Shown here one piece after another: positions 10,240 through 48,537 of a stretch of 64,000 bases of DNA. How positions within the stretch are numbered: the stretch's first letter is position 1; every line of letters begins with the position of its first letter. Both the position numbers and the translations under genes were made by a program. Location of the stretch: positions 20,587 through 84,586 of the forward strand of contig JAQTXJ010000001.1 in the NCBI GenBank assembly GCA_028688815.1, read 5' to 3'. This DNA is from a bacterium. Lineage in GTDB: Bacteria; Hydrothermota; UBA3073; JACQXS01; JAQTXJ01. Under the pieces are notes generated by a model. That model saw nothing but the letters and a program-made list of their open reading frames with translations. It ran no database searches and was not told where the DNA came from.

Positions 10240-10833
10240 ATGAGCGATATCTTTGAAGTAAGATGGCATGGCCGCGGAGGACAGGGAGCAAAAACAGCGG
10301 CTCTGTTATTTGGAGATGCGATTATGTCGACAGGCAAATATTTCCAGGCTTTCCCGGAATATGGGCCTGAAAGAATGGGTGCTCCGGTTCAGGCATTTAA
10401 CAGGTCTTCTGCCGAGCCGATTACAATGCATTGTGGAATTAAAGAGCCAAAAGTAGTCGTAATATTAGACCCGACTCTAATGGAAACACAACCGGTAACC
10501 GAAGGACTTAAAGCCGACGGCATTATACTTGTAAACACTAATGCTTCGGCAGACAGTCTTCGCCAGAAACTAAAACTCAAAAATCAAAAAATATGCACGG
10601 TAGATGCATCCGGGATTTCACGTGAATTGCTGGGCAAAGAACTTCCCAATACACCAATGCTTGGCGCACTTGTCCGTGTTACAGACGTTATAGGAATTGA
10701 TGACTTAATTAAATTTGTAGAAAAAACGCTGGGAAAGAAATTCAAAGGAAAGCCCGAAGTTATTAAAGGCAATATAGATTCAATTAGACGGGCTTACAAT
10801 GAAGTAAAAGTAACCGATGGAGGTGGAAAATGA
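10240..10833 (+). CDS. porG: 2-oxoacid (probably pyruvate):ferredoxin oxidoreductase, gamma subunit
   Basis: RWHGRGGQGAKTAALLFGDA signature; AAGGAGG Shine-Dalgarno sequence directly before ATG 10240 (the upstream TTG was rejected). Confidence 0.8.
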   Translation: MSDIFEVRWHGRGGQGAKTAALLFGDAIMSTGKYFQAFPEYGPERMGAPVQAFNRSSAEPITMHCGIKEPKVVVILDPTLMETQPVTEGLKADGIILVNTNASADSLRQKLKLKNQKICTVDASGISRELLGKELPNTPMLGALVRVTDVIGIDDLIKFVEKTLGKKFKGKPEVIKGNIDSIRRAYNEVKVTDGGGK

Positions 10834-11111
10834 CAAAGAAAGGCTGGAAAGACCTTCCAACCGGAGGTATAATAACAAAAGCCGGAAGTGCTCTTGATTT
10901 CAAAACCGGAGACTGGCGTTCGGAAAAACCAATCTGGGATAAAGAAAAATGCACTTCTTGCCTTATGTGTTTTATATATTGTCCGGATTCTTCTATTCAG
11001 GTTAAAGATGGAAAAATGACCGGAATAGACTATGACCATTGTAAAGGTTGTGGAATATGCGCAAAAGAATGTCCCGTAAAAGTTATAAAAATGGAAATGG
11101 AGAGGAGGTAA
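10830..11111 (+). CDS. porD: 2-oxoacid:ferredoxin oxidoreductase, delta subunit (2x[4Fe-4S] ferredoxin)
   Basis: Two CxxCxxCxxxCP motifs (CTSCLMCFIYCP, CKGCGICAKECP); ATGA overlap with porG. Confidence 0.8.
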   Translation: MTKKGWKDLPTGGIITKAGSALDFKTGDWRSEKPIWDKEKCTSCLMCFIYCPDSSIQVKDGKMTGIDYDHCKGCGICAKECPVKVIKMEMERR

Positions 11112-11114
11112 AAA

Positions 11115-12284
11115 ATGCCAAGGCGTGCTTTAACAGGAAACGAAGCTATGGCAGAGGCCATGAGACAGATAAATCCTGATGTCGTCGCTGCTTACCCAAT
11201 AACCCCTGCAACTGAAATAGTTCAAATATTTGCAAGCTTTGTATCGGATGGATTAGTAACTACACAATTTATACCTACGGAATCGGAACATTCCGCAATT
11301 TCCGCATGTGTAGGCGCATCTGCCGCAGGCGCAAGAGTAATGACAGGAACATCATCTCAAGGATTAGCTTTAATGCATGAAGTATTATACCAGGCGGCAG
11401 GCTTAAGAGCACCAATAGTTATATGTGAAGTAAACCGCTCTTTGTCCGCACCAATAAATATTCATTGTGACCACTCGGATACTATGGGTTCAAAAGAAGC
11501 AGGATGGATACAAATATATGCAGAAGATTCTCAGGATGCTTATGATTCAGTAATTCAGGCAATTAGAATTGCAGAAACAGTATTTTTACCCACTATGGTT
11601 TCAACAGATGGATTCATAATTTCCCATTGTATGCAGGGCGTAGAAATTCTTGAAGATAAACAGGTCCAGGATTTTATAGGACCTCATCGTTCGGCTTATT
11701 CTCTTTTCGGCGGAGCTCCTATAACCGTTGGTCCGTTAGATTTACAGGATTATTACTTTGAACATAGAAGACAATTAATGGAAGCAATGAATACCTCATT
11801 GACCACACTTGACGCAGTAAATAAAGAATTCAAACAGAAATTCGGAAGAGGTTATGACATAATTGAAGAATACAAAACCGAAGATGCCGACCATATAGTA
11901 ATGGCTATGGGTTCTACTTGCGGGACCGCAAAAGTTGCAATTGATAAAATGAGAGCAAAAGGTGTTAAAGTTGGGCTTATAAAACTCCACGTTTTCAGAC
12001 CATTCCCGCATGAACAGCTGAAAAAAGCTCTCTCAAAAGCCAAATTTGTTACGGTTCTTGACCGTTCCGATACGGCAAGCAGTATGGGTGGACCTATTTT
12101 CGTTGAAACCAGAGCAGCTCTTTACGACCAGATGCCAAAAATACTTTTTGCCGATTATATATACGGCTTGGGTGGCAGGGATATTGATATTGAAGAAATA
12201 GCAACCGTAATAGAAAAAGGTGAAAAGATGAAACTCCAGGGTAAAGTCGAAAAACCTTTAGATTATATAGGATTAAGAGAATAA
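11115..12284 (+). CDS. porA: 2-oxoacid:ferredoxin oxidoreductase, alpha subunit
   Basis: N-terminal LTGNEAMAEAMRQINPDVVAAYPITP, typical of the POR/KOR alpha subunit. Confidence 0.85.
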   Translation: MPRRALTGNEAMAEAMRQINPDVVAAYPITPATEIVQIFASFVSDGLVTTQFIPTESEHSAISACVGASAAGARVMTGTSSQGLALMHEVLYQAAGLRAPIVICEVNRSLSAPINIHCDHSDTMGSKEAGWIQIYAEDSQDAYDSVIQAIRIAETVFLPTMVSTDGFIISHCMQGVEILEDKQVQDFIGPHRSAYSLFGGAPITVGPLDLQDYYFEHRRQLMEAMNTSLTTLDAVNKEFKQKFGRGYDIIEEYKTEDADHIVMAMGSTCGTAKVAIDKMRAKGVKVGLIKLHVFRPFPHEQLKKALSKAKFVTVLDRSDTASSMGGPIFVETRAALYDQMPKILFADYIYGLGGRDIDIEEIATVIEKGEKMKLQGKVEKPLDYIGLRE

Positions 12285-12319
12285 AAAATTGAAAACTATT
12301 TTTAGATAGGAGGAGTAAG

Positions 12320-13237
12320 ATGCCAAACTTAAAGGAACTCTCCAAAAATGCAGGATTGTTCACGGGAGGGCACAGGGCTTGTGCTGGATGCGGAGGAACT
12401 GTCGTAATAAACCAAGCGTTATGCACTGCAGGTAAAAATACCGTAGTTTGTTTTGCAACCGGATGTATGGAAGTAGTGACTACCATTTATCCTTATACGG
12501 CTTGGGGTTTACCTTATGCACACTTAGGATTTGAAAATTCGGCAGCCATCGTATCAGGCGTTGAAGCCACATACAAAGCCCTTAAACAAAAAGGACAGGT
12601 AAAAGAAGATTGGAATTTTATCGCTTTCGGCGGGGACGGCGGCACCTATGATATAGGGCTACAAGCCTTATCCGGAGCAATTGAAAGAGGACATAAATTC
12701 CTTTATATATGCTATGATAACCAGGCTTATATGAATACAGGTATCCAGAGAAGCTCTGCAACGCCTACGGGCGCAAACACGACAACATCTCCTGCAGGAA
12801 CTAAAATCCAGGGGAAAGTCCAGAGACGAAAAAATCTGACAGAAATCATTGCCGCTCATGATACGCCATATGTAGCACAAGCAAACCCGGCATACTGGAT
12901 GGACTTTACGAAAAAAGTTGAAAAAGCGTTGAAAACAGACGGGCCATCTTTTATAAACGTTTTAGCGCCATGCCCGTTAGGTTGGGGTTTTTCACCAAAC
13001 AAGACGATTGAAATAGGGAAACTGGCAGCAGAGTGTAAATTCTGGCCAATGTACGAAGTAGAAAACGGAAAATACACGCTTACATACAAACCCAAAAAAG
13101 AAATGAAAGTCGAAGAATGGATGAAACTGCAGAAGAGATTTTCCCACCTGTTCAAAGAAGGCAACAAAGAATTACTTACCAATATTCAAAAGGATGTAGA
13201 TACAAAATGGGAGACATTGTTAAAAAAATGTGAATGA
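12320..13237 (+). CDS. porB: 2-oxoacid:ferredoxin oxidoreductase, beta subunit (TPP-binding)
   Basis: CAGCGGT and GDGG TPP-binding motifs. Confidence 0.85.
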
Positions 13238-14486
13238 TATGGAAATAACTGAATTACTTACAAAAGAAGAGCCGCTATTGAAAAAAATGGCGCAAAAATT
13301 AGGCATGGAAAATCCTGAAGGCAACAAAGAGGAATTGACATATAAGATTCTTGAAGCTCAGGCAAAAGAAGAAGGAAGCATGTTCGGACAGGGGTTACTT
13401 GAAATCCTGTCCGAACATGGTTTTTTACGTTCATCTCGTAACTCTTACCTCCCTTCCCCGGAAGACATTTACGTTTCTCATACTCAAATAAAAAGATTTG
13501 ACCTGAGAACGGGAGATATGGTTATAGGAAGGGTTCGACCGCCAAAAGATTCCGAAAGATATCCTGCGCTTTTAAAAATAGAAGCCGTTAATATGGAATC
13601 CCCGGAAGGCTGTAAACAAAGAGTTCCTTTTGATGCTCTTACGCCTTATCATCCGACTGAACGATTAAAACTTGAAAGAGCTGATGGAGATTTATCAATG
13701 AGAATTTTGGACCTCGTTTGCCCGATAGGAAAAGGACAGAGAGGACTAATAGTCTCGCCTCCGAGAGCAGGAAAAACTATATTGCTTCAGAAAATAGCCA
13801 ATTCCATTACGGAAAATCATCCTGAAGTCGTACAGCTAATCCTACTTATAGACGAAAGGCCAGAAGAGGTCACCGATACGAGAAGACACGTAAAAGCAGA
13901 AGTTCTTTCTTCTACTTTTGACGAACCGTCCGATAGACACGTGCAAGTTGCTAAAATGGTTATGGAAAAAGCAAAACGGCTTGTAGAAAACAAAAGAGAC
14001 GTTGTTATCCTGTTAGATTCCATAACAAGATTGGCGCGAGCTCACAATACTATTATACCTCATTCCGGGCGTACGTTATCAGGAGGAGTAGATGCCGAAG
14101 CTTTACGCGAACCGAAAAAATTCTTCGGAGCCGCAAGAAACGTTGAAGAAGGCGGGTCATTAACGATAGTCGCCACTGCCCTTGTTGAAACCGGTTCAAG
14201 AATGGATGAAGTAATATTTGAAGAATTCAAAGGCACAGGAAATATGGAACTCGTTCTCGATAGGGAACTCTCAAACAGAGGAATATATCCGGCTATTAAT
14301 CTTAATAAATCGGGAACAAGAAAGATTGAACTTCTCCTCCCGGAAAAAGATTTACACAGGATTCATATATTAAAAAGAGTGCTTTTGGAAATGAACCAGA
14401 TAGAAGCAATGGAACTAATGCGGGACAGGATGAGCAGGACCAAGACAAACCAGGATTTTCTTGAATCAATGAACAGTAACGGTTAG
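13230..14486 (+). CDS. rho: Transcription termination factor Rho
   Basis: N-terminal Rho domain; Walker A PPRAGKT; Q-loop/R-loop region. Start overlaps the porB stop by 8 nt. Confidence 0.9.
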
Positions 14487-14533: not shown

Positions 14534-14612
14534 CCTTATTTTATCGTTGTAAACCCTATGGTGTTATAAAATAAGGGCTTGACAATTTCGGTATTTTTGT
14601 TATATATAATAT
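14534..14612 (+). promoter_or_regulatory. 11-bp AT-rich inverted repeat (CCTTATTTTAT/ATAAAATAAGG, 21-nt loop) abutting a sigma70-like promoter (TTGACA 14579-14584, TATATA/TATAAT near 14601-14610)
   Basis: Sequence inspection; the -35 box is embedded in the motif TTGACAATTTCGGTATTTT, which recurs upstream of ftsK. Confidence 0.35.
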
Positions 14613-14649
14613 AATTGTTTATGTATTGAAATATAGGATTGAAGGAGAA

Positions 14650-15099
14650 ATGATGAGTGAATTGAATGAAAAAGAGATGTTGGGTGTAATTGAAAAAATA
14701 CGTAAAAGCGTGGAATTCTTTTCCAATTTTGAACCGTATGAACTTGTAGATATGCTAAAGGTCAGCACTACAAAGAAAATAAAACCGGGCGAAGTTATCT
14801 TCAGGGAAGGAGAACAAGGGCAAGAGATGTACATCATCGTTTACGGGTCTGTAAGTATCTACAAAGGGGAAAAAGAGCTTGCCGAATTAGGAACCAATAA
14901 CTATTTTGGCGAGATGGGAATTATCCAGCACGATGCACCCCGAACAGCAAGCGCAAAAGCACTAACGGATACTTTACTTATGATAGTAAATGAGAATATT
15001 CTTTCTTCTACAAATATAACTTTAAAATTGAAGCTATACAAAAACTTCTGCCAGATGTTAGCTCAAAGGTTAAGAGTTACAAACGAAGAACTAACATAA
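14650..15099 (+). CDS. Stand-alone cyclic nucleotide-binding (cNMP) domain protein, no DNA-binding domain
   Basis: FGEMGII...RTASAKAL cNMP-binding signature; GAAGGAG Shine-Dalgarno sequence before ATG 14650; only about 150 aa, so no HTH module. Confidence 0.7.
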   Translation: MMSELNEKEMLGVIEKIRKSVEFFSNFEPYELVDMLKVSTTKKIKPGEVIFREGEQGQEMYIIVYGSVSIYKGEKELAELGTNNYFGEMGIIQHDAPRTASAKALTDTLLMIVNENILSSTNITLKLKLYKNFCQMLAQRLRVTNEELT

Positions 15100-34289: not shown

Positions 34290-35786
34290 CTATTCTCCTT
34301 TCCTCATAAAATCCAATATATATCTTACGGAAAAGTAAACCACAGTCAAGCTAACCATCCAATAAACCGCTATCCATAAAGGATTAACACCTATAAACAT
34401 TAACCTGTTCCACCATGTAAATACCGTGTTGGAAGCATATAGAGACTCGTTAGATATCGCCGGAGGTGTATATTTGGCGCTTTCAAAAGTATGCAATGTT
34501 CCTAAAAATAAATTCCATAAATTTATAAATAAAATCTTTACGGTATCCCATAATTGTGGGTACCTGTAATAAAATACATATTCCATATCCTTATCCCAAA
34601 AGTAGCGTATTCTCCCGTGCCAGTTAACCAATGTCCCCGCAAATTGAATAAGCAAACTGTAAGCAGATAAAATATAAATAAAAAATCTTTTACTTGGCGG
34701 AAATTTGGGTTTTAACCAGTATCCTAAAGGCAGAATCAATAACGGAGTAATTTCGAGCGTATACCTTGGTCCCCAGCTAAAAAAATCCGACCACAGCAAA
34801 GTGCTTCCCAAAAGATAAAAAATCACAACGGATAATATTAATATGCATTCTTTCTTCTTTTCTCTAAAAAATTGATTCCAACCCAATATCGATAATATTA
34901 AAATTGGTGAATATAAAAATATGTTCTTATTCTTATTAAAAACTGTTTTTTGGACTCCTATCGCAATAGAGTCGATATAGTAATACCCTTTATTTAATAC
35001 TGTTCTTGCGCTTGGACTTATGAAAAAACCACCGGTCCTTATCCAATTATACCATCCCCAAAGAAAAAAGAAAGGAGCCACTCCTATTAAAAAAACAAAT
35101 ATTATCTTGAAGTTTTTTTCCCTTAACGCAATCAAAAATATAAAAACAAAAACAAAGAAAAGAAAAACATACGAGAGGTCCCTTGTATTAATAGTTAATC
35201 CTGCAAAAACTCCACAAAAAACTAAATACCATAATCTCTGTTTTTTTAAAAATTCAAATAAGAAATATAATGAGCTCACTATAAACAACATATTTAGATT
35301 CCCTTCGTAATTCGTAGAAGAATAAGGAAAAACAATTGTTAAAAAAGCTAAACATAATGTAGTATAAAAAGATACTTTAAGCGACATTCCAAGGGAACAA
35401 AGCAGTGAAAAGAAAACCACACATGCTAATGCATTAACGACAACACCGGTTAATGCTCCCCAAAAAGATATAACCTGTTTAACACCCCCATCCTTATGTA
35501 TTACTTTACTTACAATTGGTTCGCACATAGCTATAGGAGTCATTAGGAAAACATTTGTAATCCCATGCCAATCATACCAATCTCCGTTTTTCCCCTGGAC
35601 TAATAAAGTATCATTTGTCTGTTTAGCCAGAGACGGAGAATGTCGTTGAACTAAATTTCGGGATATTTCCAACTGAAAATCCGCTTCGACCCAAGGAAGC
35701 CCCTTGGCAAACAACAAATATATCGCTGCTATTAAAAAGAAAAGAGAAGTTTTGAATTTCAATAAACTATTACACGGAATTGACAT
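34290..35786 (-). CDS. Polytopic membrane protein, GT-C-fold glycosyltransferase-like (ArnT/PMT-family-like)
   Basis: 498 aa with more than 10 predicted TM helices and an N-proximal GDWYDW loop motif; divergent from the adjacent deacetylase/formyltransferase/GT2 genes. Confidence 0.4.
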   Translation of the reverse strand: MSIPCNSLLKFKTSLFFLIAAIYLLFAKGLPWVEADFQLEISRNLVQRHSPSLAKQTNDTLLVQGKNGDWYDWHGITNVFLMTPIAMCEPIVSKVIHKDGGVKQVISFWGALTGVVVNALACVVFFSLLCSLGMSLKVSFYTTLCLAFLTIVFPYSSTNYEGNLNMLFIVSSLYFLFEFLKKQRLWYLVFCGVFAGLTINTRDLSYVFLFFVFVFIFLIALREKNFKIIFVFLIGVAPFFFLWGWYNWIRTGGFFISPSARTVLNKGYYYIDSIAIGVQKTVFNKNKNIFLYSPILILSILGWNQFFREKKKECILILSVVIFYLLGSTLLWSDFFSWGPRYTLEITPLLILPLGYWLKPKFPPSKRFFIYILSAYSLLIQFAGTLVNWHGRIRYFWDKDMEYVFYYRYPQLWDTVKILFINLWNLFLGTLHTFESAKYTPPAISNESLYASNTVFTWWNRLMFIGVNPLWIAVYWMVSLTVVYFSVRYILDFMRKGE

Positions 35787-36146
35787 TTTCTTCTGCTCCC
35801 GCTTGTTAACTTTTTTCTGTAACCAAACAATAAACTATAATTTTATTAAAATTTTTTGTCAACCTTAATAAGAAAACAGGAAGAAAATATTGACAGAATG
35901 CTATTCTTTAGTAATTTATTAAAACATAGGGTATACTCAGACTACTGACAATAAGCTGTAAAACAAGGATAAAAACTGAAAAAGATTAGAATTTTAATAG
36001 GTAGCGATACGGCATTTACGCTGCAAGCGCCTGAAATAAAATATACTCTTCAAACACTACTTACCATCGCCGGATTCCCATGGGAATTTGTAAAAGAAGA
36101 GAATTCAAACAATGAAATTGATGTTTATTATGGGCACGATAAAAAT

Positions 36147-37421
36147 GTGAAGTGCAAGCTTCATATTATACCGTTATGTTTAAACTCTATTATGATAGAT
36201 ACGCCTATTAAGATAATTTACGATAAAGAAATCCCATTCCTTTTTTTTGACGAAATTAGCATTAAAGATAAAGTCTATTATTTAGATAATGATAAAACGC
36301 TTTTGGCAAATGATATAATTTTTTCTTCTTTCTATTTGCTGACAGGTTGGAATGAAAAATTTATAAATAGGGACAAAAAAGACAGGCACAATATTCAACA
36401 ATCGTTTCTCTACCAAAACAATCTACTGCACACGCCAATCGTAAATAAATATGCAGACATATTGTTAAATGTTTTCAGTAAAAGTCACCGGCCTCTTCCA
36501 TCCTGGCCTTACGGTAAAAAATACGCCGTTGCTTTGTCCCACGATATTGATTACCCGGTGATGATAAAATGGATAGAAGCAATAAGATATTGCGCAAAAA
36601 ACAAACCAAATATTAATCCTGTTAAAATATTCGATATATTGTTCGGGAAAGAAACTTTCTGGAACTTTGAAAAATGTATGGAATTGGAAACAAGCCACTG
36701 TCTGAAATCTGCTTTTTATTTTTGCGGGTATAAAGGAAACCTATTACGCTATTTATTATACGCGCCAGACCCATTTTATGATGTCTCCGATAAAAAGTTC
36801 TATCAATTGTTTGAGACTCTGAAAAATCACGGTTTTGAAATAGGAATGCATGCAAGTTATCTTGCATACAAATCTGTGAATTCTTTTAAATCCGAAAAAC
36901 AAAAAATAGAATCCGTCCTGGGCAAAAACATTACAGGCAATCGTCATCACTACTGGCACTGGAACCAAAACGATGCTGCACAGACATCGATAATTCACAA
37001 TGAAATAGGACTGGTATACGATTCCAGCATTTGTTTCGAAAAACACAGCGGGTTCCGTTACGGCATAAGCAGCCCTTTTCATTTGTACGATTCTAATACC
37101 TCTTCCCGGGTTGATACTTTACAACTGCCACCGAGTTTGATGGATGCTCAATTATTTGATTTTAGAAAAGAATCGAATTTTACAAAATATGAAGATATGA
37201 TAGATTCGCTTATAAATAATGCCAGGTCTTCGAGCGGAGTTTTTGTTGTTGACTTTCATCCAAGAACACTGAATAATACGCTTTTCCCTGAATGGGGAGA
37301 TAGTTACACGTATTTACTAAATGCAGTCTGCAAAAATGATGATTTCTTTTGCGATACTCCCGGGGGAATAGCCAATTACTGGTTGGAAAGAGAAAAAAAA
37401 TTATTAGAGGCATCCCTATGA
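36147..37421 (+). CDS. Polysaccharide deacetylase (NodB-homology) family protein, ArnD-like
   Basis: ALSHDIDYP (hydrophobic-x-x-D-h-D) and a His-rich NRHHYWHW block reminiscent of NodB/ArnD motifs; GTG start at 36147 (alternative ATG 36192). Confidence 0.35.
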   Translation: MKCKLHIIPLCLNSIMIDTPIKIIYDKEIPFLFFDEISIKDKVYYLDNDKTLLANDIIFSSFYLLTGWNEKFINRDKKDRHNIQQSFLYQNNLLHTPIVNKYADILLNVFSKSHRPLPSWPYGKKYAVALSHDIDYPVMIKWIEAIRYCAKNKPNINPVKIFDILFGKETFWNFEKCMELETSHCLKSAFYFCGYKGNLLRYLLYAPDPFYDVSDKKFYQLFETLKNHGFEIGMHASYLAYKSVNSFKSEKQKIESVLGKNITGNRHHYWHWNQNDAAQTSIIHNEIGLVYDSSICFEKHSGFRYGISSPFHLYDSNTSSRVDTLQLPPSLMDAQLFDFRKESNFTKYEDMIDSLINNARSSSGVFVVDFHPRTLNNTLFPEWGDSYTYLLNAVCKNDDFFCDTPGGIANYWLEREKKLLEASL

Positions 37422-38191
37422 ATATTGTCGTTTTAACAAATAAAAATAGCAATTTTGGTAAAAAAGTATTGAACAGGTTAATCCTTGACGGCCTCAAAGC
37501 TAATGCCGTAATCGTAATTAAACAACCACCAAGCTATAACCTAAAATTATTTAATTCCGTAAAAAAAAGAGTAGGTATTTGGGATGCTTTATGCTTTTCC
37601 ATAGAAAAAATATTCCAGGGAGAAAAACACCTAAGAGATGAAAAACCAATAATAACCGACTATTCTAAATTAGCACAACAGGTATTTTTTACCCGAGGAA
37701 CAAATACTATCCAAACAATAAATATCCTTAAAATGCTGAGCCCTGATATTTTAATCCTAGGACAAACCGGAATAGTTAAAAAGGAAATCCTTGAAATACC
37801 AAAACTTGGGACATTGAATGCACATCCCGGGATTCTACCGTTTTATCGCGGTATAGATTGCTGGAAATGGGCTGTTTATAATAACGAATTTGATAAAATA
37901 GGATGCAGTGTCCACTGGGTAGATACAGGTGTTGATACGGGAAACATAATTGCCGTAAAGAGGAACGATATTAGCAACCCGGATTTTGCTTGTATTGAAA
38001 ATACGCTTTACGATAATTGTATTTTATTGCTTTCCAATGTGTTACAAAGATTAAAAACTTCTTATATTGAAGGGACTAAACAAGAAAAAGAAACCGGCAA
38101 ACAATACTATAAAATGTCTAAAAAGTTAGAAAAAACAGTTAAAGATAAATTAGAAAATATTGCAGTAAGAACCGACCGTAAAAAAATATAA
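37418..38191 (+). CDS. Formyltransferase-domain protein (Fmt/PurN/ArnA-N or sugar N-formyltransferase-like)
   Basis: NAHPGILPFYRG matches the formyl-transferase catalytic motif (N..H..SLLPxxRG); ATGA overlap with the upstream gene. Confidence 0.6.
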   Translation: MNIVVLTNKNSNFGKKVLNRLILDGLKANAVIVIKQPPSYNLKLFNSVKKRVGIWDALCFSIEKIFQGEKHLRDEKPIITDYSKLAQQVFFTRGTNTIQTINILKMLSPDILILGQTGIVKKEILEIPKLGTLNAHPGILPFYRGIDCWKWAVYNNEFDKIGCSVHWVDTGVDTGNIIAVKRNDISNPDFACIENTLYDNCILLLSNVLQRLKTSYIEGTKQEKETGKQYYKMSKKLEKTVKDKLENIAVRTDRKKI

Positions 38192-38196
38192 TTGTT

Positions 38197-39141
38197 ATGA
38201 AGCCATCCGTTATTATACCTAAAGACAAAGGAGTATTAAAAAATCATATTGATTTAAGCATATCTATCGTTCATCATAAAAATAAAGAATTTTTAGAAAA
38301 ATGTCTCGACTCTATATTTAAGGAAACTAAAAACATAACCTTTGAAATATTTGTAATAGATAATTGTTCGAATGATAAAATACCGGAATTGATTGAAAAA
38401 AAATACCCCGGAATTACCTTAATCAGGAACAATCAGTCAGAAGGATTTGCAAGCAATCACAACAAAGCATTAAAACTGGCAAACGGGCGGTATTTACTTA
38501 TCCTGAATAACGATACTATTATTTTAGATTCTGCCTTCGATAAAATGGTAAAATTTATGGATACAAACTCAATCATAGGAGCGCTTGGATGTAAAATGTA
38601 CTTAACAGAAAAAATGGATTCCGCATCCCCGCCACCTTCAAAGTACTCTTTTACCCCTTTTAGAGAATTCTGGGACAGTTTAGTCGGACATTCCGGGATA
38701 CAAAAAATATTCTACAATTCCCCTCTGATTTACAACCCCGGATGCAGTACCGCAGGTCCGAAAGCAGTTGACACGGAAAACGAAGTGGCACATATAAGCG
38801 GGGCATGTATGATGGTGCGCAAAGAAGTAGCAACGCAAGTAGGGTTAATGGACGAAAACTATATGATGTTTCTTGAGGAAACGGATTGGTGTTATCGAAT
38901 AAAAAAACAAGGTTGGAAAATGTATTATTATCCGAAAGCTTATATAATCCATTACGGCTCAAAATCATTAGGTTACTTTGAAAACACCAGAAAAAAACTA
39001 CACGAGGAAAGCCTTGCTTATTTTTTCAAAAAACACTACGGTGCCGGTGGATTTCTTTTATTCAAGATGTTAAGAATTGTCCTATTTCCCATAATGTCTA
39101 TTCATAAATTATACTTAAAAATAACATACCCTCAAAAATAA
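38197..39141 (+). CDS. Family 2 glycosyltransferase
   Basis: LSISIVHHKNKEFLEKCLDSI...FVIDNCSNDK (GT-A fold, DxD region). Confidence 0.7.
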   Translation: MKPSVIIPKDKGVLKNHIDLSISIVHHKNKEFLEKCLDSIFKETKNITFEIFVIDNCSNDKIPELIEKKYPGITLIRNNQSEGFASNHNKALKLANGRYLLILNNDTIILDSAFDKMVKFMDTNSIIGALGCKMYLTEKMDSASPPPSKYSFTPFREFWDSLVGHSGIQKIFYNSPLIYNPGCSTAGPKAVDTENEVAHISGACMMVRKEVATQVGLMDENYMMFLEETDWCYRIKKQGWKMYYYPKAYIIHYGSKSLGYFENTRKKLHEESLAYFFKKHYGAGGFLLFKMLRIVLFPIMSIHKLYLKITYPQK

Positions 39142-39146
39142 AACTT

Positions 39147-40271
39147 ATGAAAATCTTACTGGCCGGAAATTTTCCTTGTGATGAGAAACTTGGTTCACCC
39201 AAAATACTCATTAAACTCGGGAAAGAATTAGAAAAAAAGGGACACTTTGTTAAGTATATATTTAGCGAAGACTTAAAAACCGCCTTGCCGACAAAACATT
39301 TACGATACTTTAATTCTCCCCTTGCCGTGTTTTTTGCAGTCAGAAAATATTATAAGTTATACAAGGGGTTTGATATTGTCCAGATTGCCTCGGGAGATGG
39401 TTTTATATGGGGACTCTATAAAAGACTTCTAAAACTGAATAACAAATATATATGTTTATCCATAGGACTTGAACACCTGGATGAAAAAATCAGGAAAGAA
39501 AACGAAAAACTCGGATTGCTGAAATTATCTTTAATACATAAAATAGGGTTTAGCGTAAGGCTTAGAAGCGTGGAATTATCAATAAAACTAAGTGATACGA
39601 CAATATGTTTAAACAGCGTTGATAAAGATTTTATCGTTCAGCATTGTTCCATAAAAGCAGAAAAAATAAAAGTAATACCTGCCGGAGTGTCTAAAAAGTT
39701 TTTTCTAAAACAAAAAAAATCCTCTTCCGGCAAAAATTCATTATTGTATGTCGGGACGTGGATTCCAAGAAAAGGAGTAAAATACCTTGCTGATGCATAT
39801 TCGATACTTGCAAATAAAATTGATAATCTGAGTTTGACTATAGTCGGCGGCGTAGAAACAGAAGAAACAATTAAATCCGAATTTTCACAAAACATAAGAA
39901 ATAAAGTTCAGATAATTCCGTTAGTTCCTGAAGAAGAGTTGGTTAATATATACGGGAATTATACTATTTTTGTTTTCCCTACTCTTTGCGAAGGTTTCGG
40001 TATGGTATTTTTAGAAGCTATGGCATCAGGACTTGCAGTAATAACAACAAACGCGGGTGGAGCAATAGATATAATAGAAAATAACATAGACGGGATTATC
40101 ATTCCTGAACGGAATACTGACGCTATTGTTTCTGCAGTTGAAAAACTCATATATGACAACAATCTATTGTTGGAAATTGGAACAAAAGCAAGAGAAAAAG
40201 CTAGAAATTTTGTATGGGAAAATATGGCAGAAAAAATAATCAAGACATACGAAAAAATAACCTTGCGATGA
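39147..40271 (+). CDS. Family 4 (group 1) glycosyltransferase
   Basis: C-terminal FVFPTLCEGFGMVFLEAMASGLAVITTNAGG (E-x7-E-like GT-B motif). Confidence 0.75.
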   Translation: MKILLAGNFPCDEKLGSPKILIKLGKELEKKGHFVKYIFSEDLKTALPTKHLRYFNSPLAVFFAVRKYYKLYKGFDIVQIASGDGFIWGLYKRLLKLNNKYICLSIGLEHLDEKIRKENEKLGLLKLSLIHKIGFSVRLRSVELSIKLSDTTICLNSVDKDFIVQHCSIKAEKIKVIPAGVSKKFFLKQKKSSSGKNSLLYVGTWIPRKGVKYLADAYSILANKIDNLSLTIVGGVETEETIKSEFSQNIRNKVQIIPLVPEEELVNIYGNYTIFVFPTLCEGFGMVFLEAMASGLAVITTNAGGAIDIIENNIDGIIIPERNTDAIVSAVEKLIYDNNLLLEIGTKAREKARNFVWENMAEKIIKTYEKITLR

Positions 40272-40360
40272 AATATGGAGAATTCTCAAGTTAAAATTGA
40301 CAAAAGACTTCGGTGAAATTATATTTATTAAAAACTCTTAGGGATTAAAAATTACTTAAT

Positions 40361-41137
40361 ATGATACTATTTATTATTCCGGCATACAATGAAGAGAAGA
40401 ACATTCCTACTCTATTAAAAGAGATAGAATGCTTTGCTAAAAATTACAAATGCCGGATAATTATTGTTAATGACGGGAGCACAGACAAAACCGAAGAGAT
40501 AGCAACATCTTTCAAAAATAAACTTCCGGTAGAAGTTCTTACTCATCCTACGAATAAAGGTCCCGGGGAAGCTTTTAAAACAGGTTTTTCTTATGTTTTA
40601 AAAGAGGCAAAAGAGGAAGACATTATCATAACTAAAGAAGCTGATAATACCGGGGATGATTCCATATTACCGGTTATGATAAAAAAAATATTGGAAGGAA
40701 ACAATTTAGTTATCGCCTCCTGTTATGCAAGGGATGGAGAAATAATCGGCACTACATTTATCCGTAAAGCTTTAAGCTATGCCGCGAATATATTCTTAAG
40801 AATACTTTACCCGCATCTAAAAGTAAAAACTTACAGTTCCTTCTATCGCGCTTATTCTGTTAAGCTCTTAAAAAAGGCATATAAAATTTACGGGAATAAC
40901 TTCATAAAAGAAAAAGGATTTATTGTTATGACAGAAATACTAATAAAATTAAGTAGATTAAAAGATACAAAGATAGCGGAAATTCCCACAGTATTGAAAT
41001 GTGATAATAGGGTAGGCAAAAGCAAAATGATTGTATTAAAAAACATCCTTGATTATTTATGTTTTATTCTTAAAGACACCCTTGATAGGATTTACAAAGT
41101 TGATATAAACAATAGATACCAAGATTACCCGGATTAA
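40361..41137 (+). CDS. Polyprenol-phosphate glycosyltransferase, DPM1/ArnC-like GT2
   Basis: IIPAYNEEKNIPTLL...IIIVNDGSTDKTEEIA N-terminus typical of Dpm1/ArnC/GtrB-like enzymes; own TTGACA promoter upstream. Confidence 0.7.
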   Translation: MILFIIPAYNEEKNIPTLLKEIECFAKNYKCRIIIVNDGSTDKTEEIATSFKNKLPVEVLTHPTNKGPGEAFKTGFSYVLKEAKEEDIIITKEADNTGDDSILPVMIKKILEGNNLVIASCYARDGEIIGTTFIRKALSYAANIFLRILYPHLKVKTYSSFYRAYSVKLLKKAYKIYGNNFIKEKGFIVMTEILIKLSRLKDTKIAEIPTVLKCDNRVGKSKMIVLKNILDYLCFILKDTLDRIYKVDINNRYQDYPD

Positions 41138-41139
41138 GA

Positions 41140-42498
41140 ATGAAAAAATTACTTGGTTTTTCCGCATTTACAATTAGCATAATCATCATATATTCTTTAA
41201 TTAATTTTATTGGAATATCCCTAACAAAAACAGGAGTAGAAAATAAACTGTTATTTGGGATACTAATTCTTTTTAAGACAATTTTAATAACACTCTGGTT
41301 ATCGGGAATTACTTATAAAAAACTCTGGGATAAAAATACTTTAAGAAACAAAACTTCCCGAATTATCTGGAGTTTAACACTAATCGTTGTTTTTATACTC
41401 CTTAACTCTTCTTTATTATTATTAGATAGAACAAGTAAATTATATAAACATATAAAGGGACCGTCTTGTGGATGGAAAGGAAAACTGTGGCAGTCAGACA
41501 CAACATTAGGCACCAGGCCAATACCGAATGCAAAAGGATTTGAGACTTTTGTGATAAGTAAAGACGTGCCAATAAAGTTTGACAGGAATGGATTTAGGGT
41601 TCCCGTTTTCTGCACTGATACAACAATTAAAAGGCCTTTATTTTTATTTCTGGGATGCTCATTTACTTTCGGAATGGCTTGCCCGGCAGAAGAAAGTTTT
41701 CCCTACATAGTTTCCCAGGATACAAAAGGTTCCTCAATGAATGCCGGAATATGCGCAGGCGGACTTTCCCAGATGCTTTTATTATCCCGGGAATTAGTCC
41801 CTCATTATAAACCTGATTTTGTAATAGTGCAATACTCGCCGTGGTTAGCCCAAAGAGCCACATTGATGGGAGCCCCGACATATATTGCAGTAACACCGGT
41901 ACCTTATATCTCTAAAACTAAAGACGGAAAAAATGTAATAAGTCCAATTGCTTTTAATTCAAAAACGCTTGATTTAAATATAGAAAAGTTTAGAGGAACT
42001 CCCAAAAACATAAGAGACTATACTTGTTTTTTGTTTGAAATAGCAATACCTTTATACTTACACGATGTTTATTATAGAACTATAACAGCCTTAAAAAAAA
42101 TACTGGGGAAAATTCCAAAACCGGATAAAAACATTAAAGATATAGAACAATTTGCATACAGCAATATTTATGATGTTTGCAAACAAAATAACAGTAAAAT
42201 GATTATTCTTAACCTCGGGGATATTACATATACAAAAAATTCCCATACCCTTATATTGCCTGATAGTAATATTATTTTTGCAGAAGCGGATTCTCTCTTG
42301 TTCCGCAGACTGAAGTCTCCCGACGAATACAATAAAGAATATATGCACTGGTGTTTTAATGGGAAGGATTCCGTTATAGAAGATGTACACCCGACATATA
42401 AAGCAAACAAAATAATAGCAGAAGCTATAGTCACCACGATAAAAGAAAACACCCCAAAAACGAATCTCTCTTATAGCTGCGATAAGACAAAAAAATAG
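41140..42498 (+). CDS. Membrane-anchored SGNH/GDSL-hydrolase-like protein (possible polysaccharide O-acyl transferase/esterase)
   Basis: Two N-terminal TM segments; LFLFLGCSFTFG resembles SGNH block I (GDSxxxG with Asp replaced by Cys). Confidence 0.35.
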   Translation: MKKLLGFSAFTISIIIIYSLINFIGISLTKTGVENKLLFGILILFKTILITLWLSGITYKKLWDKNTLRNKTSRIIWSLTLIVVFILLNSSLLLLDRTSKLYKHIKGPSCGWKGKLWQSDTTLGTRPIPNAKGFETFVISKDVPIKFDRNGFRVPVFCTDTTIKRPLFLFLGCSFTFGMACPAEESFPYIVSQDTKGSSMNAGICAGGLSQMLLLSRELVPHYKPDFVIVQYSPWLAQRATLMGAPTYIAVTPVPYISKTKDGKNVISPIAFNSKTLDLNIEKFRGTPKNIRDYTCFLFEIAIPLYLHDVYYRTITALKKILGKIPKPDKNIKDIEQFAYSNIYDVCKQNNSKMIILNLGDITYTKNSHTLILPDSNIIFAEADSLLFRRLKSPDEYNKEYMHWCFNGKDSVIEDVHPTYKANKIIAEAIVTTIKENTPKTNLSYSCDKTKK

Positions 42499-42509
42499 AA
42501 TCTTCTTCA

Positions 42510-42617
42510 ATGCCCCTGAGAAAGATTATACTGAGTTTTAAAGGCAAAATGGCTGTAATGAAAAATATTCTTGACTATTTGCGCTTTATCGTTAAAGATA
42601 ATATTGAGAGGAATTGA
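42510..42617 (+). pseudogene. Remnant (35 codons) of the C-terminus of a second DPM1/ArnC-like GT2 gene
   Basis: The translation ...ILSFKGKMAVMKNILDYLRFIVKDNIERN aligns to the C-terminus of the 40361..41137 product (VLKCDNRVGKSKMIVLKNILDYLCFILKDTLDR), and the two DNAs are about 70 percent identical over about 80 nt. Confidence 0.6.
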
Positions 42618-42634
42618 GGGGATATTTAATTAAA

Positions 42635-45613
42635 ATGAGGAACAAATTATTTGCAGGAGGAATATTATTTTTCTTCTGTTTGAATGTTAATGCAAATTCG
42701 TGGGTTCAAAATGACTGGAGTAATGGCGATTCCCAGCTTATCTGGACGGATTCCACAAAATACCTGTCCGCAAATAACATTGAAACGAATAATGGCGTTT
42801 CATTATCCACAGAAACACCTTTAAAAGCTACCCCTTTATTAAATACCAATAAAGTATGGAGTATGACAAAAGGAGTTCGAGGAGATACAAATTTAATTTT
42901 TGCAGGGGTAGAAAGTACTGGGATAGACGTATGGATGAGTTTGGACAATGGAGAAACATATCAACTGGGGTGGCACTCTTTATATGGTGGGGAAGATATT
43001 GTCAAAAAAGTAACCACTTTATGTTGGAACAACTCTAATTCCTCCCTGTTAGTTGGCTGTTATATTCACGAATGGGGAGAGGAATATTATATCGAACCTA
43101 TTACAGAATTTGGCAAAATGAATTTCCCCAATCTTTTAACATACGGAAGTAATCCTAAATATACTTATTCTATGATAGCTTTTTCTGATACTATACTTAT
43201 CGGGGGCGGGGAGAATTCTTATATCCTTCGTTCCGTGAATAACGGGGCAAACTGGTCAAGTATTTCTATGGCAGACACCAGGATAATTTCTTTGCTCAAA
43301 TCTCTTGATGGAAACGTATATGCCGGTTCGGGCACCAATCTTGGATTGGTACTAAAATCCGTAGATAACGGGGCAAACTGGACTGCCGTGTTTGCTACTA
43401 CTCAAAAATCCGTTTTTTCATTAATCGAGGGACCGGACAGCACAATTTATGCCTCCACAGGCGACAGCGGAAAAATCTTCAAAACTAAAAACGGCTGGGG
43501 CACTCACGATACTACTACGCCTATCCCAAATGCCCGTGAAGTCAGATTGATTTGCGATTCGCTGGGAACTCTTTATGCAGGTGTGTCCTGCATGGATGAC
43601 AGCGCACGAGTCTTTTATTCTTCGGATAAAGGAACCAGCTGGACACAAATAGGCGGGACTCTTTGCCAGGGGAAAATCTCATCAATGATATTCACAAGTA
43701 ATCAATGCCTTCTGGTAGGGACTGACCACAATGGAACAATATTCAGATTGGCAAAATATGTTCCCGCAGGAAGTCTTATATCTTCTATATATAATACCGG
43801 AGAAAGCAATAGAAATGCTACAAGGTATTACACTAAAATAGAATGGGACGGGGATTACAACGGTCAAGATATTATCGTAAAAATTAGAAGTTTTCAGGAC
43901 ACTATCGGCTTTAGCGATACTCTTTCCTGGACAAATTGCCCTCCTTGCACAAGCGGACAATTGCTGTCAACCGTATCATCGGTGGATAATAACGACCAGT
44001 TTATTCAATATAAAATAGATTTTCTTGCTTCCCCATCATTCGTTACTCCCGTACTTCATAATATCACTACGACATATTCTTTCGTTGATACCGCAGGCCC
44101 TCTACTTACCAGCGCAACCGCTACCGGAGATGAAATTTACAATCCTCCGAATTCTTTTACACCAAATGATAAAGTTACTCTTTCCTTCGACGAGAGAATA
44201 GATACCCTTATCGTAAATAACTCAAATATTGATTCTATACTTAAATTAAGTGGCGGACATAAATGGATAAGTGATTCTGCGGTCTGGGATACGGCTTATA
44301 AAAATCTTACCGTTACTTTAAGCGATATTTCACAGGTTATGATAGGAGACACCGTTTTCCCACGCAAATCCCAAACCGACAGTTTAACGGATAAATGGGG
44401 AAACCAGTGCGTCTCCCCTTGTATTATTACGGGAACTTTTGCTCCCTATATTGATTCCATCGTTGCATACGACGGGCAGGATTCCATTGAATACATTGAT
44501 TCCGACGATTACATAACTCTTTACTTTTCAAAACGCACAAACAAAAAAAGTATCAATGCCGCAAACATAAATAATATACTCCGCCTTCGCAATCATTCAT
44601 GGCTGGATGCCAAAGCGCATATGGGGTCCTGCGTATGGGATTCCCTTGGGTTTGCTCTGGTTTGCAGCCTAAAAACAGACAGTCTCCGACCAACGATTGC
44701 AGTCGGTGATACGATATTCCCGGATTCCGTTAACATAAAAGATAAATTTCTTAAGGGCGCAGTAATCGCTCCCTGTATAATTAAAGGAACTTTCGGGCAA
44801 TACGGTCCTGTTCCCGACAGCGCAATTGCTTATGAAGGCAGTCCACAAGAAAGCGGAATAGGCAACGGGGATTATATTCTCGTTTACTTTAACAAGCTTA
44901 TACAAGATATTCAATGGGGAAACTTAGATCTGGATACCGTTTTGACTCTTAAAAAAGCAGGCGTCCAACACACATGGTATCCTCCTACCGAAAGTCTTAT
45001 TTGTACGGCTCAGGCAGTTGAACAACAAGACTTGATGGGCATTAAATACACATTACTTTTCATATCTTTTGTAGACACTACTACGGGAACAGAAGAAACA
45101 ATCATCCAATATAATGCTGGTTTATCCGTGTTTCCAAATCCTTCTAACTCTCAGGCATCCATATCTTTTACCGTACCGGGACTTGCAATCGGCAATAATC
45201 CAAAATCCGTAATCCAAAATCTAAAATCTAAAATCCAAAATCCTTTAATATCCATAGGGGATACTATTTTCCCGGATTCTAATCTGATTAAAGACACAAG
45301 CAACAGAAAATGCAAAAAGGCAGTATGCATTACCGGGGGATTTTCCAAATCCGACATTAAATCTTTCCTCTTAAAATCTTCCGTTAAAAAATCTCAGCCG
45401 ACATTATCCGGATCTTTGGTGTCCATAAAAATATACAATGTAAGCGGACAGCTTGTAAGAACACTTATGAACACTCCCCAAAAATCCGGTACATATACCG
45501 CATTGTGGGACGGCAAAGATGACCATTCGCATAAAGTAAACGCAGGTATGTATATATGCAAATTAAGCCTTAACAATCAAACGCTTACGCAAAAAATAGT
45601 TCTCTTGAAATAA
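42635..45613 (+). CDS. Secreted BNR/Asp-box repeat protein with a T9SS C-terminal sorting domain
   Basis: Signal peptide; Asp-box motifs SLDNGETY, SVNNGANWS, SVDNGANWT, SSDKGTSWT; C-terminal KIYNVSGQLVRTL...GMYICKL...KIVLLK typical of the Por secretion tail; ATG 42635 chosen. Confidence 0.7.
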   Translation: MRNKLFAGGILFFFCLNVNANSWVQNDWSNGDSQLIWTDSTKYLSANNIETNNGVSLSTETPLKATPLLNTNKVWSMTKGVRGDTNLIFAGVESTGIDVWMSLDNGETYQLGWHSLYGGEDIVKKVTTLCWNNSNSSLLVGCYIHEWGEEYYIEPITEFGKMNFPNLLTYGSNPKYTYSMIAFSDTILIGGGENSYILRSVNNGANWSSISMADTRIISLLKSLDGNVYAGSGTNLGLVLKSVDNGANWTAVFATTQKSVFSLIEGPDSTIYASTGDSGKIFKTKNGWGTHDTTTPIPNAREVRLICDSLGTLYAGVSCMDDSARVFYSSDKGTSWTQIGGTLCQGKISSMIFTSNQCLLVGTDHNGTIFRLAKYVPAGSLISSIYNTGESNRNATRYYTKIEWDGDYNGQDIIVKIRSFQDTIGFSDTLSWTNCPPCTSGQLLSTVSSVDNNDQFIQYKIDFLASPSFVTPVLHNITTTYSFVDTAGPLLTSATATGDEIYNPPNSFTPNDKVTLSFDERIDTLIVNNSNIDSILKLSGGHKWISDSAVWDTAYKNLTVTLSDISQVMIGDTVFPRKSQTDSLTDKWGNQCVSPCIITGTFAPYIDSIVAYDGQDSIEYIDSDDYITLYFSKRTNKKSINAANINNILRLRNHSWLDAKAHMGSCVWDSLGFALVCSLKTDSLRPTIAVGDTIFPDSVNIKDKFLKGAVIAPCIIKGTFGQYGPVPDSAIAYEGSPQESGIGNGDYILVYFNKLIQDIQWGNLDLDTVLTLKKAGVQHTWYPPTESLICTAQAVEQQDLMGIKYTLLFISFVDTTTGTEETIIQYNAGLSVFPNPSNSQASISFTVPGLAIGNNPKSVIQNLKSKIQNPLISIGDTIFPDSNLIKDTSNRKCKKAVCITGGFSKSDIKSFLLKSSVKKSQPTLSGSLVSIKIYNVSGQLVRTLMNTPQKSGTYTALWDGKDDHSHKVNAGMYICKLSLNNQTLTQKIVLLK
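45202..45243 (+). repeat. Heptanucleotide microsatellite (AAAATCY)x6 inside the BNR/T9SS cargo CDS
   Basis: aaaatcc gtaatcc aaaatct aaaatct aaaatcc aaaatcc, read directly; the 42 nt are currently in frame. Confidence 0.8.
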
Positions 45614-47168: not shown

Positions 47169-47255
47169 GGGCAGATGGCGGAATTTGGCATACGCGCCAG
47201 GCTTAGGACCTGGTTCCTATAAAATGGAGTGTGGGTTCAAATCCCACTCTGCCCA
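47169..47255 (+). tRNA. tRNA-Leu (anticodon TAG), type II with long variable arm
   Basis: Acceptor GGGCAGA/TCTGCCC, anticodon stem CCAGG/CCTGG with loop CTTAGGA, long variable arm, T-arm GTGGG-TTCAAAT-CCCAC, discriminator A. Confidence 0.9.
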
Positions 47256-47295: not shown

Positions 47296-48537
47296 ATGGA
47301 ATTTGAAATAAAAAAAATAAATGAATGTGAGAGATCTTTAGAATTTAGCATTCCTGCCACAGAAGTAAATAAAAAAATAGAATCCCTTTATTCCGAGTAT
47401 CAGGCATCGGCAAAACTAGACGGCTTCAGGAAAGGGAAAGTCCCTATGAATATCATAAAGTCAAAATATAGCGCCACCATACAAGAAGAAGCAATAAATG
47501 AATGCATCAGGGAAACATACAGAGGAATAGCGGAAAAAGAAAAAATCTCCCCGGTATCGGACATACGGTTAGAAGATAAAAAATTCGACCCCGCAAAGGA
47601 ACTTAAAGTTAAATTATCTTATGAAATTATGCCTGATTTGAAACTTCAACATTATAAAGGCATAAAAATAAAAAAACTATCTACGGAAGTCACGGAAAAA
47701 GAAATAGAAATGGTAATGTCCAAATTAACGGATTCAAAAGCTACTTATGTGCCTACGGCTATGAGAGCAGCGTCCAGCGAAGATATGCTTATCGTTAGTT
47801 ATGACATATTATGGGAAGAAAAGGGCGTTTATCGCAAAAATCATGTCTCTAACTATACCGTTTTAATGGATGCTCCTGAAACTCCTGAAGAAATAAGAAA
47901 TGCCCTGAAAAATACAGTTCCGGGTGATAAGAAAACGGTGAAAATTAAATACCCGCCTGACCATAAAGACGAAAACCTGAGAGACAAATCGGTAGAATAT
48001 GCATTTGTCGTCCATGAAATAAAAGAAAAAAGATTGCCTCCGATAGATGATGAATTTGCAAAAAACATAGGGTTTAAGTCTATGGAAGAGTTAAAAACCA
48101 ATATAACTACCAGTATAGCAAGAGATAAAGAAACGGAAGCTCGTTCAAGGATGAGAACTCAAATTATCAATTCCCTTATAGATAGCAACCCTTTCAAACC
48201 GTTGAATTCTCTTGTTGCAGATTATATGGAGTCAATGCTCAAACAGGCAGGTAAAAATATAGACGATAAAACAAAAAGTCAGTTAGAAGAAATTGCCATA
48301 TGGCGCGCAAAAAGAGATATGATATTGCAGCAACTATCCGAAGTAGAACACATTGAAATAACGGCAGAAGAATTGAAAGCAAAGTTACTTGATACGGAAG
48401 AAGGAAGAAAATTAGGATACGAAAAACTCGTAAAAGACTTGCAAAAGAAAGGAATCTTTAGTTCAATTGTGTGGGAATTTACAGTAGATAAAACAATGAA
48501 TTTCCTTATAGAAAACGCAGAGATAAGTCCGGAATAA
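47296..48537 (+). CDS. tig: Trigger factor
   Basis: N-terminal ribosome-binding domain, FRKGKVP motif, PPIase-like middle domain; start moved to ATG 47296 because the tracked ORF start lies inside tRNA-Leu. Confidence 0.85.
   Translation: MEFEIKKINECERSLEFSIPATEVNKKIESLYSEYQASAKLDGFRKGKVPMNIIKSKYSATIQEEAINECIRETYRGIAEKEKISPVSDIRLEDKKFDPAKELKVKLSYEIMPDLKLQHYKGIKIKKLSTEVTEKEIEMVMSKLTDSKATYVPTAMRAASSEDMLIVSYDILWEEKGVYRKNHVSNYTVLMDAPETPEEIRNALKNTVPGDKKTVKIKYPPDHKDENLRDKSVEYAFVVHEIKEKRLPPIDDEFAKNIGFKSMEELKTNITTSIARDKETEARSRMRTQIINSLIDSNPFKPLNSLVADYMESMLKQAGKNIDDKTKSQLEEIAIWRAKRDMILQQLSEVEHIEITAEELKAKLLDTEEGRKLGYEKLVKDLQKKGIFSSIVWEFTVDKTMNFLIENAEISPE

Follow-up and report, generated by a model that had tools for sequence, protein, structure and literature searches.

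Organization of the locus

The DNA analyzed here is a single 64-kb stretch, referred to as the window. Within it lies a variable glycan island whose conserved left border is formed by a PMT_2/ArnT-like GT-C glycosyltransferase gene on the reverse strand (34290..35786). This border gene was found in all three lineages that carry the locus; its orthologs in two related loci (L004 and L005) contain PF13231, and its NCBIfam name is LA_3751/3752 family putative glycosyltransferase. The genes that follow are all on the forward strand. They comprise a DUF7033 gene (36147), a formyltransferase (37349), a GT2 (38197), a GT4 (39147), an intact DPM1/ArnC-like GT2 of 258 residues (40361..41137) and a membrane-anchored, SGNH-like gene of 452 residues (41140..42498). 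The next large gene encodes a T9SS cargo protein of 992 residues counted from its ATG (42635..45613), with a signal peptide, BNR-like repeats and a FlgD_ig/Por_Secre_tail C-terminal domain. The listed open reading frame of the cargo gene opens at a TTG (42614), whereas the ATG at 42635 is where the signal peptide starts. Between the SGNH-like gene and the cargo gene is a forward-strand frame of 35 codons that opens with ATG and occupies 42510-42617, with its TGA stop codon at 42615-42617.

To the right of the cargo gene are MgsA (45632), a tRNA-Leu with anticodon TAG (47169-47255) and trigger factor (47296), all on the forward strand. A spurious 450-residue trigger factor reading frame begins at a TTG and runs through the tRNA-Leu; the real start is the ATG at 47296. 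The region upstream of the tRNA-Leu, which contains TTGACA...TATAAA, is nearly identical in L004.

Parts of the island (34290-42498) resemble the Arn (Ara4N/Ara4FN) lipid-modification pathway, namely the PMT_2/ArnT-like GT-C enzyme, the DUF7033 protein, the formyltransferase, the GT2, the GT4, the DPM1/ArnC-like GT2 and the SGNH-like protein. The island may build a formylated or acylated amino sugar and transfer it by way of a polyprenol-phosphate carrier.

The intact GT2 at 40361..41137 contains the PF00535 domain (E=4.7e-24), and its closest characterized relatives are polyprenol-phosphate sugar synthases. The best solved homolog was the Dol-P-Man synthase of P. furiosus (5mlz, E=4.7e-19), in an alignment that continued through residue 238 and included the RVGKSKMIVLKNILDYLCFILK segment, and the next matches in the PDB were ArnC and then the GtrB-like protein sll0501. 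Homologs of this GT2 are named dolichol-phosphate mannosyltransferase in the JGI collection. Among the NCBIfam equivalogs, all scores for the protein were far below the cut-offs, and a look-up of the exact protein returned no record. Judged from these matches, the label DPM1/ArnC-like seems fair. A sigma-70-like site, TTGACA-17-TATATT, lies on the forward strand 36 nt upstream of the gene (40297..40325) and agrees with the consensus at 11 of 12 positions, a match to consensus only. Given this near-consensus site, the GT2 and the SGNH-like gene, perhaps together with the cargo gene, may be a transcription unit of their own within the island.

The 35-codon frame ends in a remnant of a GT2 gene

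The sequence-only reading had described the 35-codon frame as homologous, at both the protein and the DNA level, to the 3' end of the intact GT2, and this was borne out by blastn, blastp and Smith-Waterman alignment. When the fragment was compared by blastn with the whole 64-kb window, the sole significant match other than itself was 41018-41093, inside the intact GT2. Nucleotides 42540-42615 aligned to this segment on the same strand and without gaps at 57 of 76 positions (75%, E=2.4e-9). The Smith-Waterman score was 84, whereas 2000 shuffled sequences averaged 26 and did not exceed 47. Of the 24 residues aligned between KGKMAVMKNILDYLRFIVKDNIER in the stub and KSKMIVLKNILDYLCFILKDTLDR in the GT2, 16 are identical and the replacements are all conservative. 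The two copies of the repeat are both in codon register, with 6, 3 and 10 mismatches at codon positions 1, 2 and 3, respectively. Masking of low-complexity sequence had been proposed as a check on this similarity, which remained significant both for the nucleotide match with DUST (pairwise E=2.5e-11) and for the protein match with SEG turned on (blastp, E=1.2e-8). The similarity is therefore real and not a low-complexity artefact.

The extent of the homology was narrower than had been claimed. The frame was thought to match the last 30 or so codons of the GT2, and while the homology itself held, it covers only codons 11-35 of the frame and residues 220-244 of the 258 residues of the GT2, the intact gene extending 14 residues beyond the matched segment. 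For codons 1-10, which include the ATG (42510-42539), no GT2 similarity was detected and the local alignment scored no better than shuffled sequences. The hexamer ATGCCC upstream of 42540 was considered as a counterpart of ATTCCC, the Ile-Pro codons of the GT2, but the resemblance was not significant and was rejected. These ten codons belong to a forward-strand stretch of junction filler (42499..42539) without detectable homology to GT2 or to L004, and this filler matched only the copies of the same junction in L001, L002, L003 and L007.

The homologous portion, referred to below as the stub, consists of two parts on the forward strand. The 5' part (42540..42563) encodes KGKMAVMK and has decayed at about the neutral rate, and the 3' part (42564..42617) encodes NILDYLRFIVKDNIERN followed by the TGA and is strongly conserved between lineages. 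The leader that connects the stub to the cargo start (42616..42634) begins with a purine-rich GAGGGG (42616-21), which overlaps the stub stop codon and is located 13 nt before the cargo ATG. The distance of 17 nt given earlier between the end of the fragment and the cargo gene was correct, with the TGA at 42615-42617 and the ATG at 42635.

The stub is not an enzyme. It lacks a catalytic domain, only the equivalents of residues 220-244 being present, and in comparison with DPM1-type enzymes the segment corresponds approximately to residues 225-245 of PfDPMS, past the catalytic domain. We consider 42540-42617 to be a non-functional 3' remnant of a DPM1-like polyprenol-phosphate GT2 gene whose end lay 17 nt ahead of the cargo gene, consisting of its last 25 or so codons and the stop codon, with a probability of about 0.95.

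The stub and its neighbors in related lineages

The cargo protein was used to search 185,579 species genomes, the JGI metagenomes and 5.8 billion proteins, and only three lineages that carry the locus were identified. The first is represented by the window's own genome (the window and L001). The second comprises L002, L003 and L007, in which the GT2 and the cargo protein are 96% and 89% identical to those of the window. The third comprises L004, L005 and L006 (GCA_028716385.1), with corresponding identities of 86% and 74%. The fourfold identity of the GT2 between the window and L004 is 0.65, similar to that of the flanks, and the GT2 neighbor upstream is also shared; the intact GT2 thus looks orthologous across the lineages.

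In all three lineages the stub is located directly upstream of the same T9SS cargo gene. Stub, cargo gene, MgsA and trigger factor are collinear throughout, and the PMT_2 gene is the common left flank. The collinearity indicates that the linkage of stub and cargo gene predates the split of the lineages. Moreover, because the intact GT2 is orthologous and the stub is present in every lineage, both were already present in the common ancestor, which makes the truncation old.

The slot that separates the GT2 from the stub is not filled in the same way in every lineage. The gene order of L002 is that of the window, and the slot is occupied by the SGNH-like gene in both. The L004 island has three GT2 genes followed by the orthologous DPM1-like GT2, and its slot (10783-14204, reverse strand) contains another DPM1-like GT2, a class I methyltransferase and a B12-binding radical SAM gene, transcribed convergently with the main GT2. 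Beyond these reverse-strand genes there are 367 nt of non-coding DNA, and the stub comes next, directly before the cargo ATG. The reverse-strand GT2 is 41% identical to the window GT2. When the slots of the window and L004 were compared, no remnants of the cassette of one were found in the other. The proposal that the fragment marks a rearrangement junction therefore stands, as the slot varies by lineage and the SGNH-like gene abuts the junction. The accompanying proposal that the cargo gene may have entered there does not, because the order stub, cargo gene, MgsA and trigger factor is syntenic in all three. Related genomes had also been suggested as a place to look for an intact second GT2, and none was present on the same strand next to the cargo gene in any of the three lineages.

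The stub of the window is at least 20 nt shorter on its 5' side than the stub of L004, which would fit a recutting of the stub by insertion of the SGNH-like gene.

The C-terminus of the GT2 differs in length among the orthologs (258, 252 and 243 residues). The GT2 of L004 and the stub each terminate no more than 1-2 codons from the end of the repeat. The 9-15 additional GT2 codons in the window and L002 may derive from the left insertion junction (window 41094-41137, L002 10734-10759, L004 10730-10732).

Over 33034-54921, the fourfold identity between the window and the L002 lineage (L002 and L007) is a mosaic. The gene at 33034 has a value of 0.65 and the island, from 34290 to approximately 42800, values of 0.83-0.88; the cargo gene follows with 0.76, MgsA with 0.60 and the DNA further to the right with 0.53-0.68. 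In these two lineages the common ancestry of the island seems to be more recent than that of its flanks, and the breakpoint would lie within the cargo gene, close to 42800.

The cargo protein of L004 is annotated with 1021 residues, from an ATG that lies within the stub and in a different frame (14606-14690, JAQUPX010000001.1). The signal peptide starts at the ATG at 14690, so the 28 N-terminal residues probably reflect an annotation error to which the pseudogene gave rise.

Origin of the stub

Two routes to a truncated 3' end were considered, displacement of the 3' end of the resident GT2 and deletion of a full paralog. Displacement is given an even chance. By this route, a segment carrying a closely related GT2 allele together with one or more downstream genes would have integrated by homology within the GT2. 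An illegitimate join approximately 100 nt before the stop codon of the resident GT2 would have completed the integration and pushed the resident 3' end downstream, where it would have become the stub. The two GT2-derived copies bracket the slot, whose contents have since been exchanged. The layout that such an event leaves behind was found in the window, where the first copy of the repeat (GT2 codons 220-244, 41018-41093, forward strand) is followed by the insert (41094-42539) and by the second copy (42540-42615), and it was found again in L004 with a different insert. The stub is also nearest to the GT2 clade of its own lineage, with BLOSUM62 scores of 75-104 compared with 58 or less for the other GT2 homologs that were fetched.

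The second route, on which a complete tandem paralogous GT2 once lay before the cargo gene and lost its first 220 or so codons by deletion or replacement, is the less likely of the two but retains some support. The 25% divergence in DNA, the conservative changes and the concentration of mismatches at codon position 3 suggest that the two copies diverged while both were coding. Furthermore, paralogs of the DPM1-like GT2 do occur in the slot, as the reverse-strand gene of L004 demonstrates. However, none of the three lineages retains an intact copy in the same orientation beside the cargo gene, and divergence between alleles before the displacement can account for the coding-like pattern. Allelic divergence suffices because the stub is as close to the window GT2 (57-61 of 76 positions) as the GT2 orthologs are to each other (51 of 76). 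Neither an empty site, nor a donor allele, nor an intact tandem copy was found in the genome, metagenome and protein collections.

The reverse-strand DPM1-like GT2 of L004 was itself tried as the parent of the stub. It was rejected on account of its low identity and of a C-terminus unlike the stub.

Decay and constraint within the stub

The window and L004 were compared against a neutral yardstick provided by their fourfold identity, which is 0.58-0.65; intergenic DNA outside the tRNA-Leu and its promoter could not be aligned between them. The two parts of the stub behaved differently. In the 3' 52 nt, 48 positions (92%) are identical between the stubs of the window and L004, compared with 31 of 52 (60%) for the same codons of the living GT2 orthologs (Fisher p=1.6e-4). 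In the 5' 24 nt the relation is reversed, with 16 of 24 identical in the stubs (67%) and 20 of 24 in the living orthologs, and L004 has a 2-nt insertion there. The difference between the 3' part of the stub and its own 5' part gave p=0.007. Conservation extends through the leader, such that the 73 nt up to the cargo ATG (42562-42634) are identical to L004 at 66 positions (90%; P=6e-7 against p=0.65), and falls away within the cargo gene, whose first 20 or so codons are only 52-72% identical with many amino acid changes.

The comparison of the window with L002 gave the same result. The segment 42564-42617 is identical in L002, the stub and leader together differ at 1 of 136 nt, and the stub stretch is the best conserved, flanking coding bins being 84-92% identical. 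The conservation is thus based on two independent comparisons among three lineages, and a non-neutral constraint on the 3' half of the stub is highly probable. This constraint had been overlooked in the sequence-only reading.

The possibility was considered that the 3' half has no function and that recent recombination or gene conversion homogenized about 75 nt at the right border of the island. Exchange in this region has clearly left traces, as the block of high fourfold identity between the window and L002 (0.83-0.88 from 34290 to approximately 42800, compared with 0.60 in MgsA and 0.65 in the gene at 33034) gives way to the mosaic pattern within the cargo gene, and the slot contents have been swapped. 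However, the block conserved between the window and L004 is short and stands alone, with the stub 5' part on one side of it and the early cargo codons on the other both diverged, a pattern that speaks against a recombination tract of recent date. A tract would need to be only about 75 nt long and to end exactly at the start codon, and the same stretch is also the most conserved in the independent comparison of the window with L002. Homogenization is accordingly regarded as improbable.

The 35-codon frame was also considered as a real small gene that encodes a microprotein or a leader peptide with translational coupling to the cargo gene. The frame is indeed intact in the window, L001, L002 and L003, where it is initiated by ATG and ends 17 nt before the cargo ATG. 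The L004 homolog decides against this explanation. It aligns to the GT2 over approximately 97 nt (14572-14668) with a score of 71, where the best shuffle reached 39, and it contains a 1-nt deletion, the 2-nt insertion and an in-frame stop, while a start codon (ATG, GTG or TTG) is missing. One frame reads RKSKMIML and another NILDYLCFIVKDNIERN*; a stop codon directly precedes NILDYL. In addition, the ATG and the first ten codons of the window frame are located in the non-homologous junction filler, the sole difference from L002 is non-synonymous, and the 35-residue product was not called by gene callers in any collection and has no Pfam match. A small gene is very unlikely. Because of the frame-breaking indels and the missing start in L004, the stub is a pseudogene remnant rather than a conserved small open reading frame, and it is predicted not to be translated as a conserved peptide.

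The stub thus has most of the properties of a gene remnant. It is homologous to part of a functional gene of which the rest is missing, it carries disabling lesions and its frame is not conserved; only its rate of change departs from expectation, being about neutral in the 5' 24 nt and constrained in the 3' 52 nt. Since the stub is frame-broken in L004, the constraint cannot be protein-coding. Coding having failed to explain the conservation, a structured RNA such as a riboswitch or thermosensor in the 5' untranslated region of the cargo gene might be invoked, but it is very unlikely, given no Rfam match at E values up to 1, a minimum free energy of -11.7 kcal/mol compared with -11.8 for shuffled sequences (z=0.06), and a weak consensus fold (-8 kcal/mol) with one compensatory pair among 27.

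A putative expression signal for the cargo gene

The 3' 52 or so nt of the stub and the 17-nt leader are very probably held by purifying selection, and we propose that this conserved half carries cis-acting signals for expression of the cargo gene, in the form of a promoter and a translation-initiation region. A regulatory role of this kind is considered likely.

A candidate promoter, TTGACT-N17-AAAGAT, is located within the stub on the forward strand (42571..42599), with TTGACT at 42571-76 and AAAGAT at 42594-99. Both hexamers and the length of the 17-nt spacer are invariant in the three lineages, while the sequence of the spacer varies, as expected of a promoter. Of the four substitutions within the conserved part, three are located in the spacer, at 42582, 42584 and 42590; this distribution is not significant taken alone (about p=0.1). 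The candidate matches the consensus at only 8 of 12 positions. A consensus scan of the window and of L004, with a threshold of 9 of 12 and 4 of 6 per hexamer, did not call it. Moreover, the -35-like TTGACT is partly a by-product of the Leu-Asp-Tyr codons and is also present in the intact GT2 of L002. The assignment of the promoter to exactly these hexamers is tentative, with odds slightly short of even. Sites of the sigma-70 type as such plainly appear to be in use in this genome; 8 of the 18 best sites, among them the ones before the GT2 and before the tRNA-Leu, are located in the small intergenic fraction.

Because the genes upstream point the other way in L004, the cargo gene there must have a nearby promoter of its own, and the signals in the stub would be indispensable. 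In the window, read-through into the cargo gene from the promoter-like site at 40297 could be an alternative.

It is conceivable, although doubtful, that the stub is maintained by selection as a dual element in a long-lived slot bounded by direct repeats, serving both as promoter or leader of the cargo gene and as the right homology anchor for swaps of glycan cassettes. If so, the cargo gene would stay expressed whatever lands upstream of the stub, and the swappable cassettes would be the SGNH-like gene or the set of GT2, methyltransferase and radical SAM genes.

Comparison with known systems

Gene remnants in the O-antigen clusters of E. coli have been described as an anomaly that indicates a genetic event (PMC7685785). 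The stub shares with the remnants of O-antigen and capsule loci a truncated glycosyltransferase between intact genes, a variable glycan locus with conserved flanks and a past cassette replacement. Those remnants are read as relatively recent, whereas the stub is older than the divergence of lineages whose synonymous sites are roughly saturated, and one half of it has changed less than the gene that is still alive.

[quoted passage not shown] In these loci, as here, an intact gene upstream is followed by an insert and by an old 3' end of the same family in the same orientation, and the inserts are lineage-specific. However, the stub locus has no toxin-immunity logic and contains one displaced end instead of an array. 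The likeness is an analogy only, as neither a donor nor a microhomology junction was found at the stub locus.

With internal operon promoters the stub has in common a conserved stretch in a former coding end and a pair of -35- and -10-like hexamers at a fixed 17-nt spacing, although the match of the candidate to the consensus is weak.

The stub is a remnant at a glycan-locus cassette junction, a well-known kind of feature, and does not represent a new class of system. The novelty is modest and consists in the age of the remnant and in the conservation of one of its halves, which exceeds that of the corresponding codons of the living GT2. It marks where, and roughly how, a glycan-modification island was remodeled in an uncultured, T9SS-bearing lineage, and it would be a clean natural case of dead coding sequence that was kept, or co-opted, to serve as regulatory DNA for the neighboring gene. 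To our knowledge, no promoters have been described in this lineage; if the regulatory reading is true, the stub would supply one, or a leader, for a T9SS cargo gene. Two annotation traps are also corrected, the spurious 35-residue reading frame and the N-terminally over-extended cargo gene in GCA_028716385.1.

The SGNH-like occupant of the slot

Neither Pfam nor NCBIfam gave a match for the 452-residue protein encoded in the slot. Among 120 listed homologs, two contain PF13472, and one UniRef name is SGNH/GDSL. The residues G172-C-S174-F-T-F-G178, D415 and H417-P418 are invariant in nine members of the family, down to 37% identity; the GCSFTFG and D-x-H-P motifs correspond to the Gly-x-Ser nucleophile of SGNH block I and the Asp/His of block V. 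The name SGNH-like is reasonable for the family, because a few of its members do carry PF13472. The family is widespread and consists of hypothetical proteins with N-terminal transmembrane segments.

The gene is a lineage-specific occupant, absent from the slot of L004, and a look-up of the exact protein returned only one 2-kb contig. Its paralogs in related genomes are 57-65% identical and sit after a carbamoyltransferase gene. A joint import of the GT2 and the SGNH-like gene was considered and rejected, since the paralogs follow the carbamoyltransferase and not a GT2. Because they are not normally found beside a GT2, the present occupant of the slot did not arrive with the GT2 allele.

The carbamoyltransferase is of the NodU/CmcH type (PF02543/PF16861), and the SGNH-like paralogs follow it directly (L008 8001-9407; L010 and L011 8001-9323). 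In L010 and L011 the paralog is in turn followed by a DUF5989 gene. The carbamoyltransferase context hints at a role of the SGNH-like protein in carbamoyl or acyl modification of glycans.
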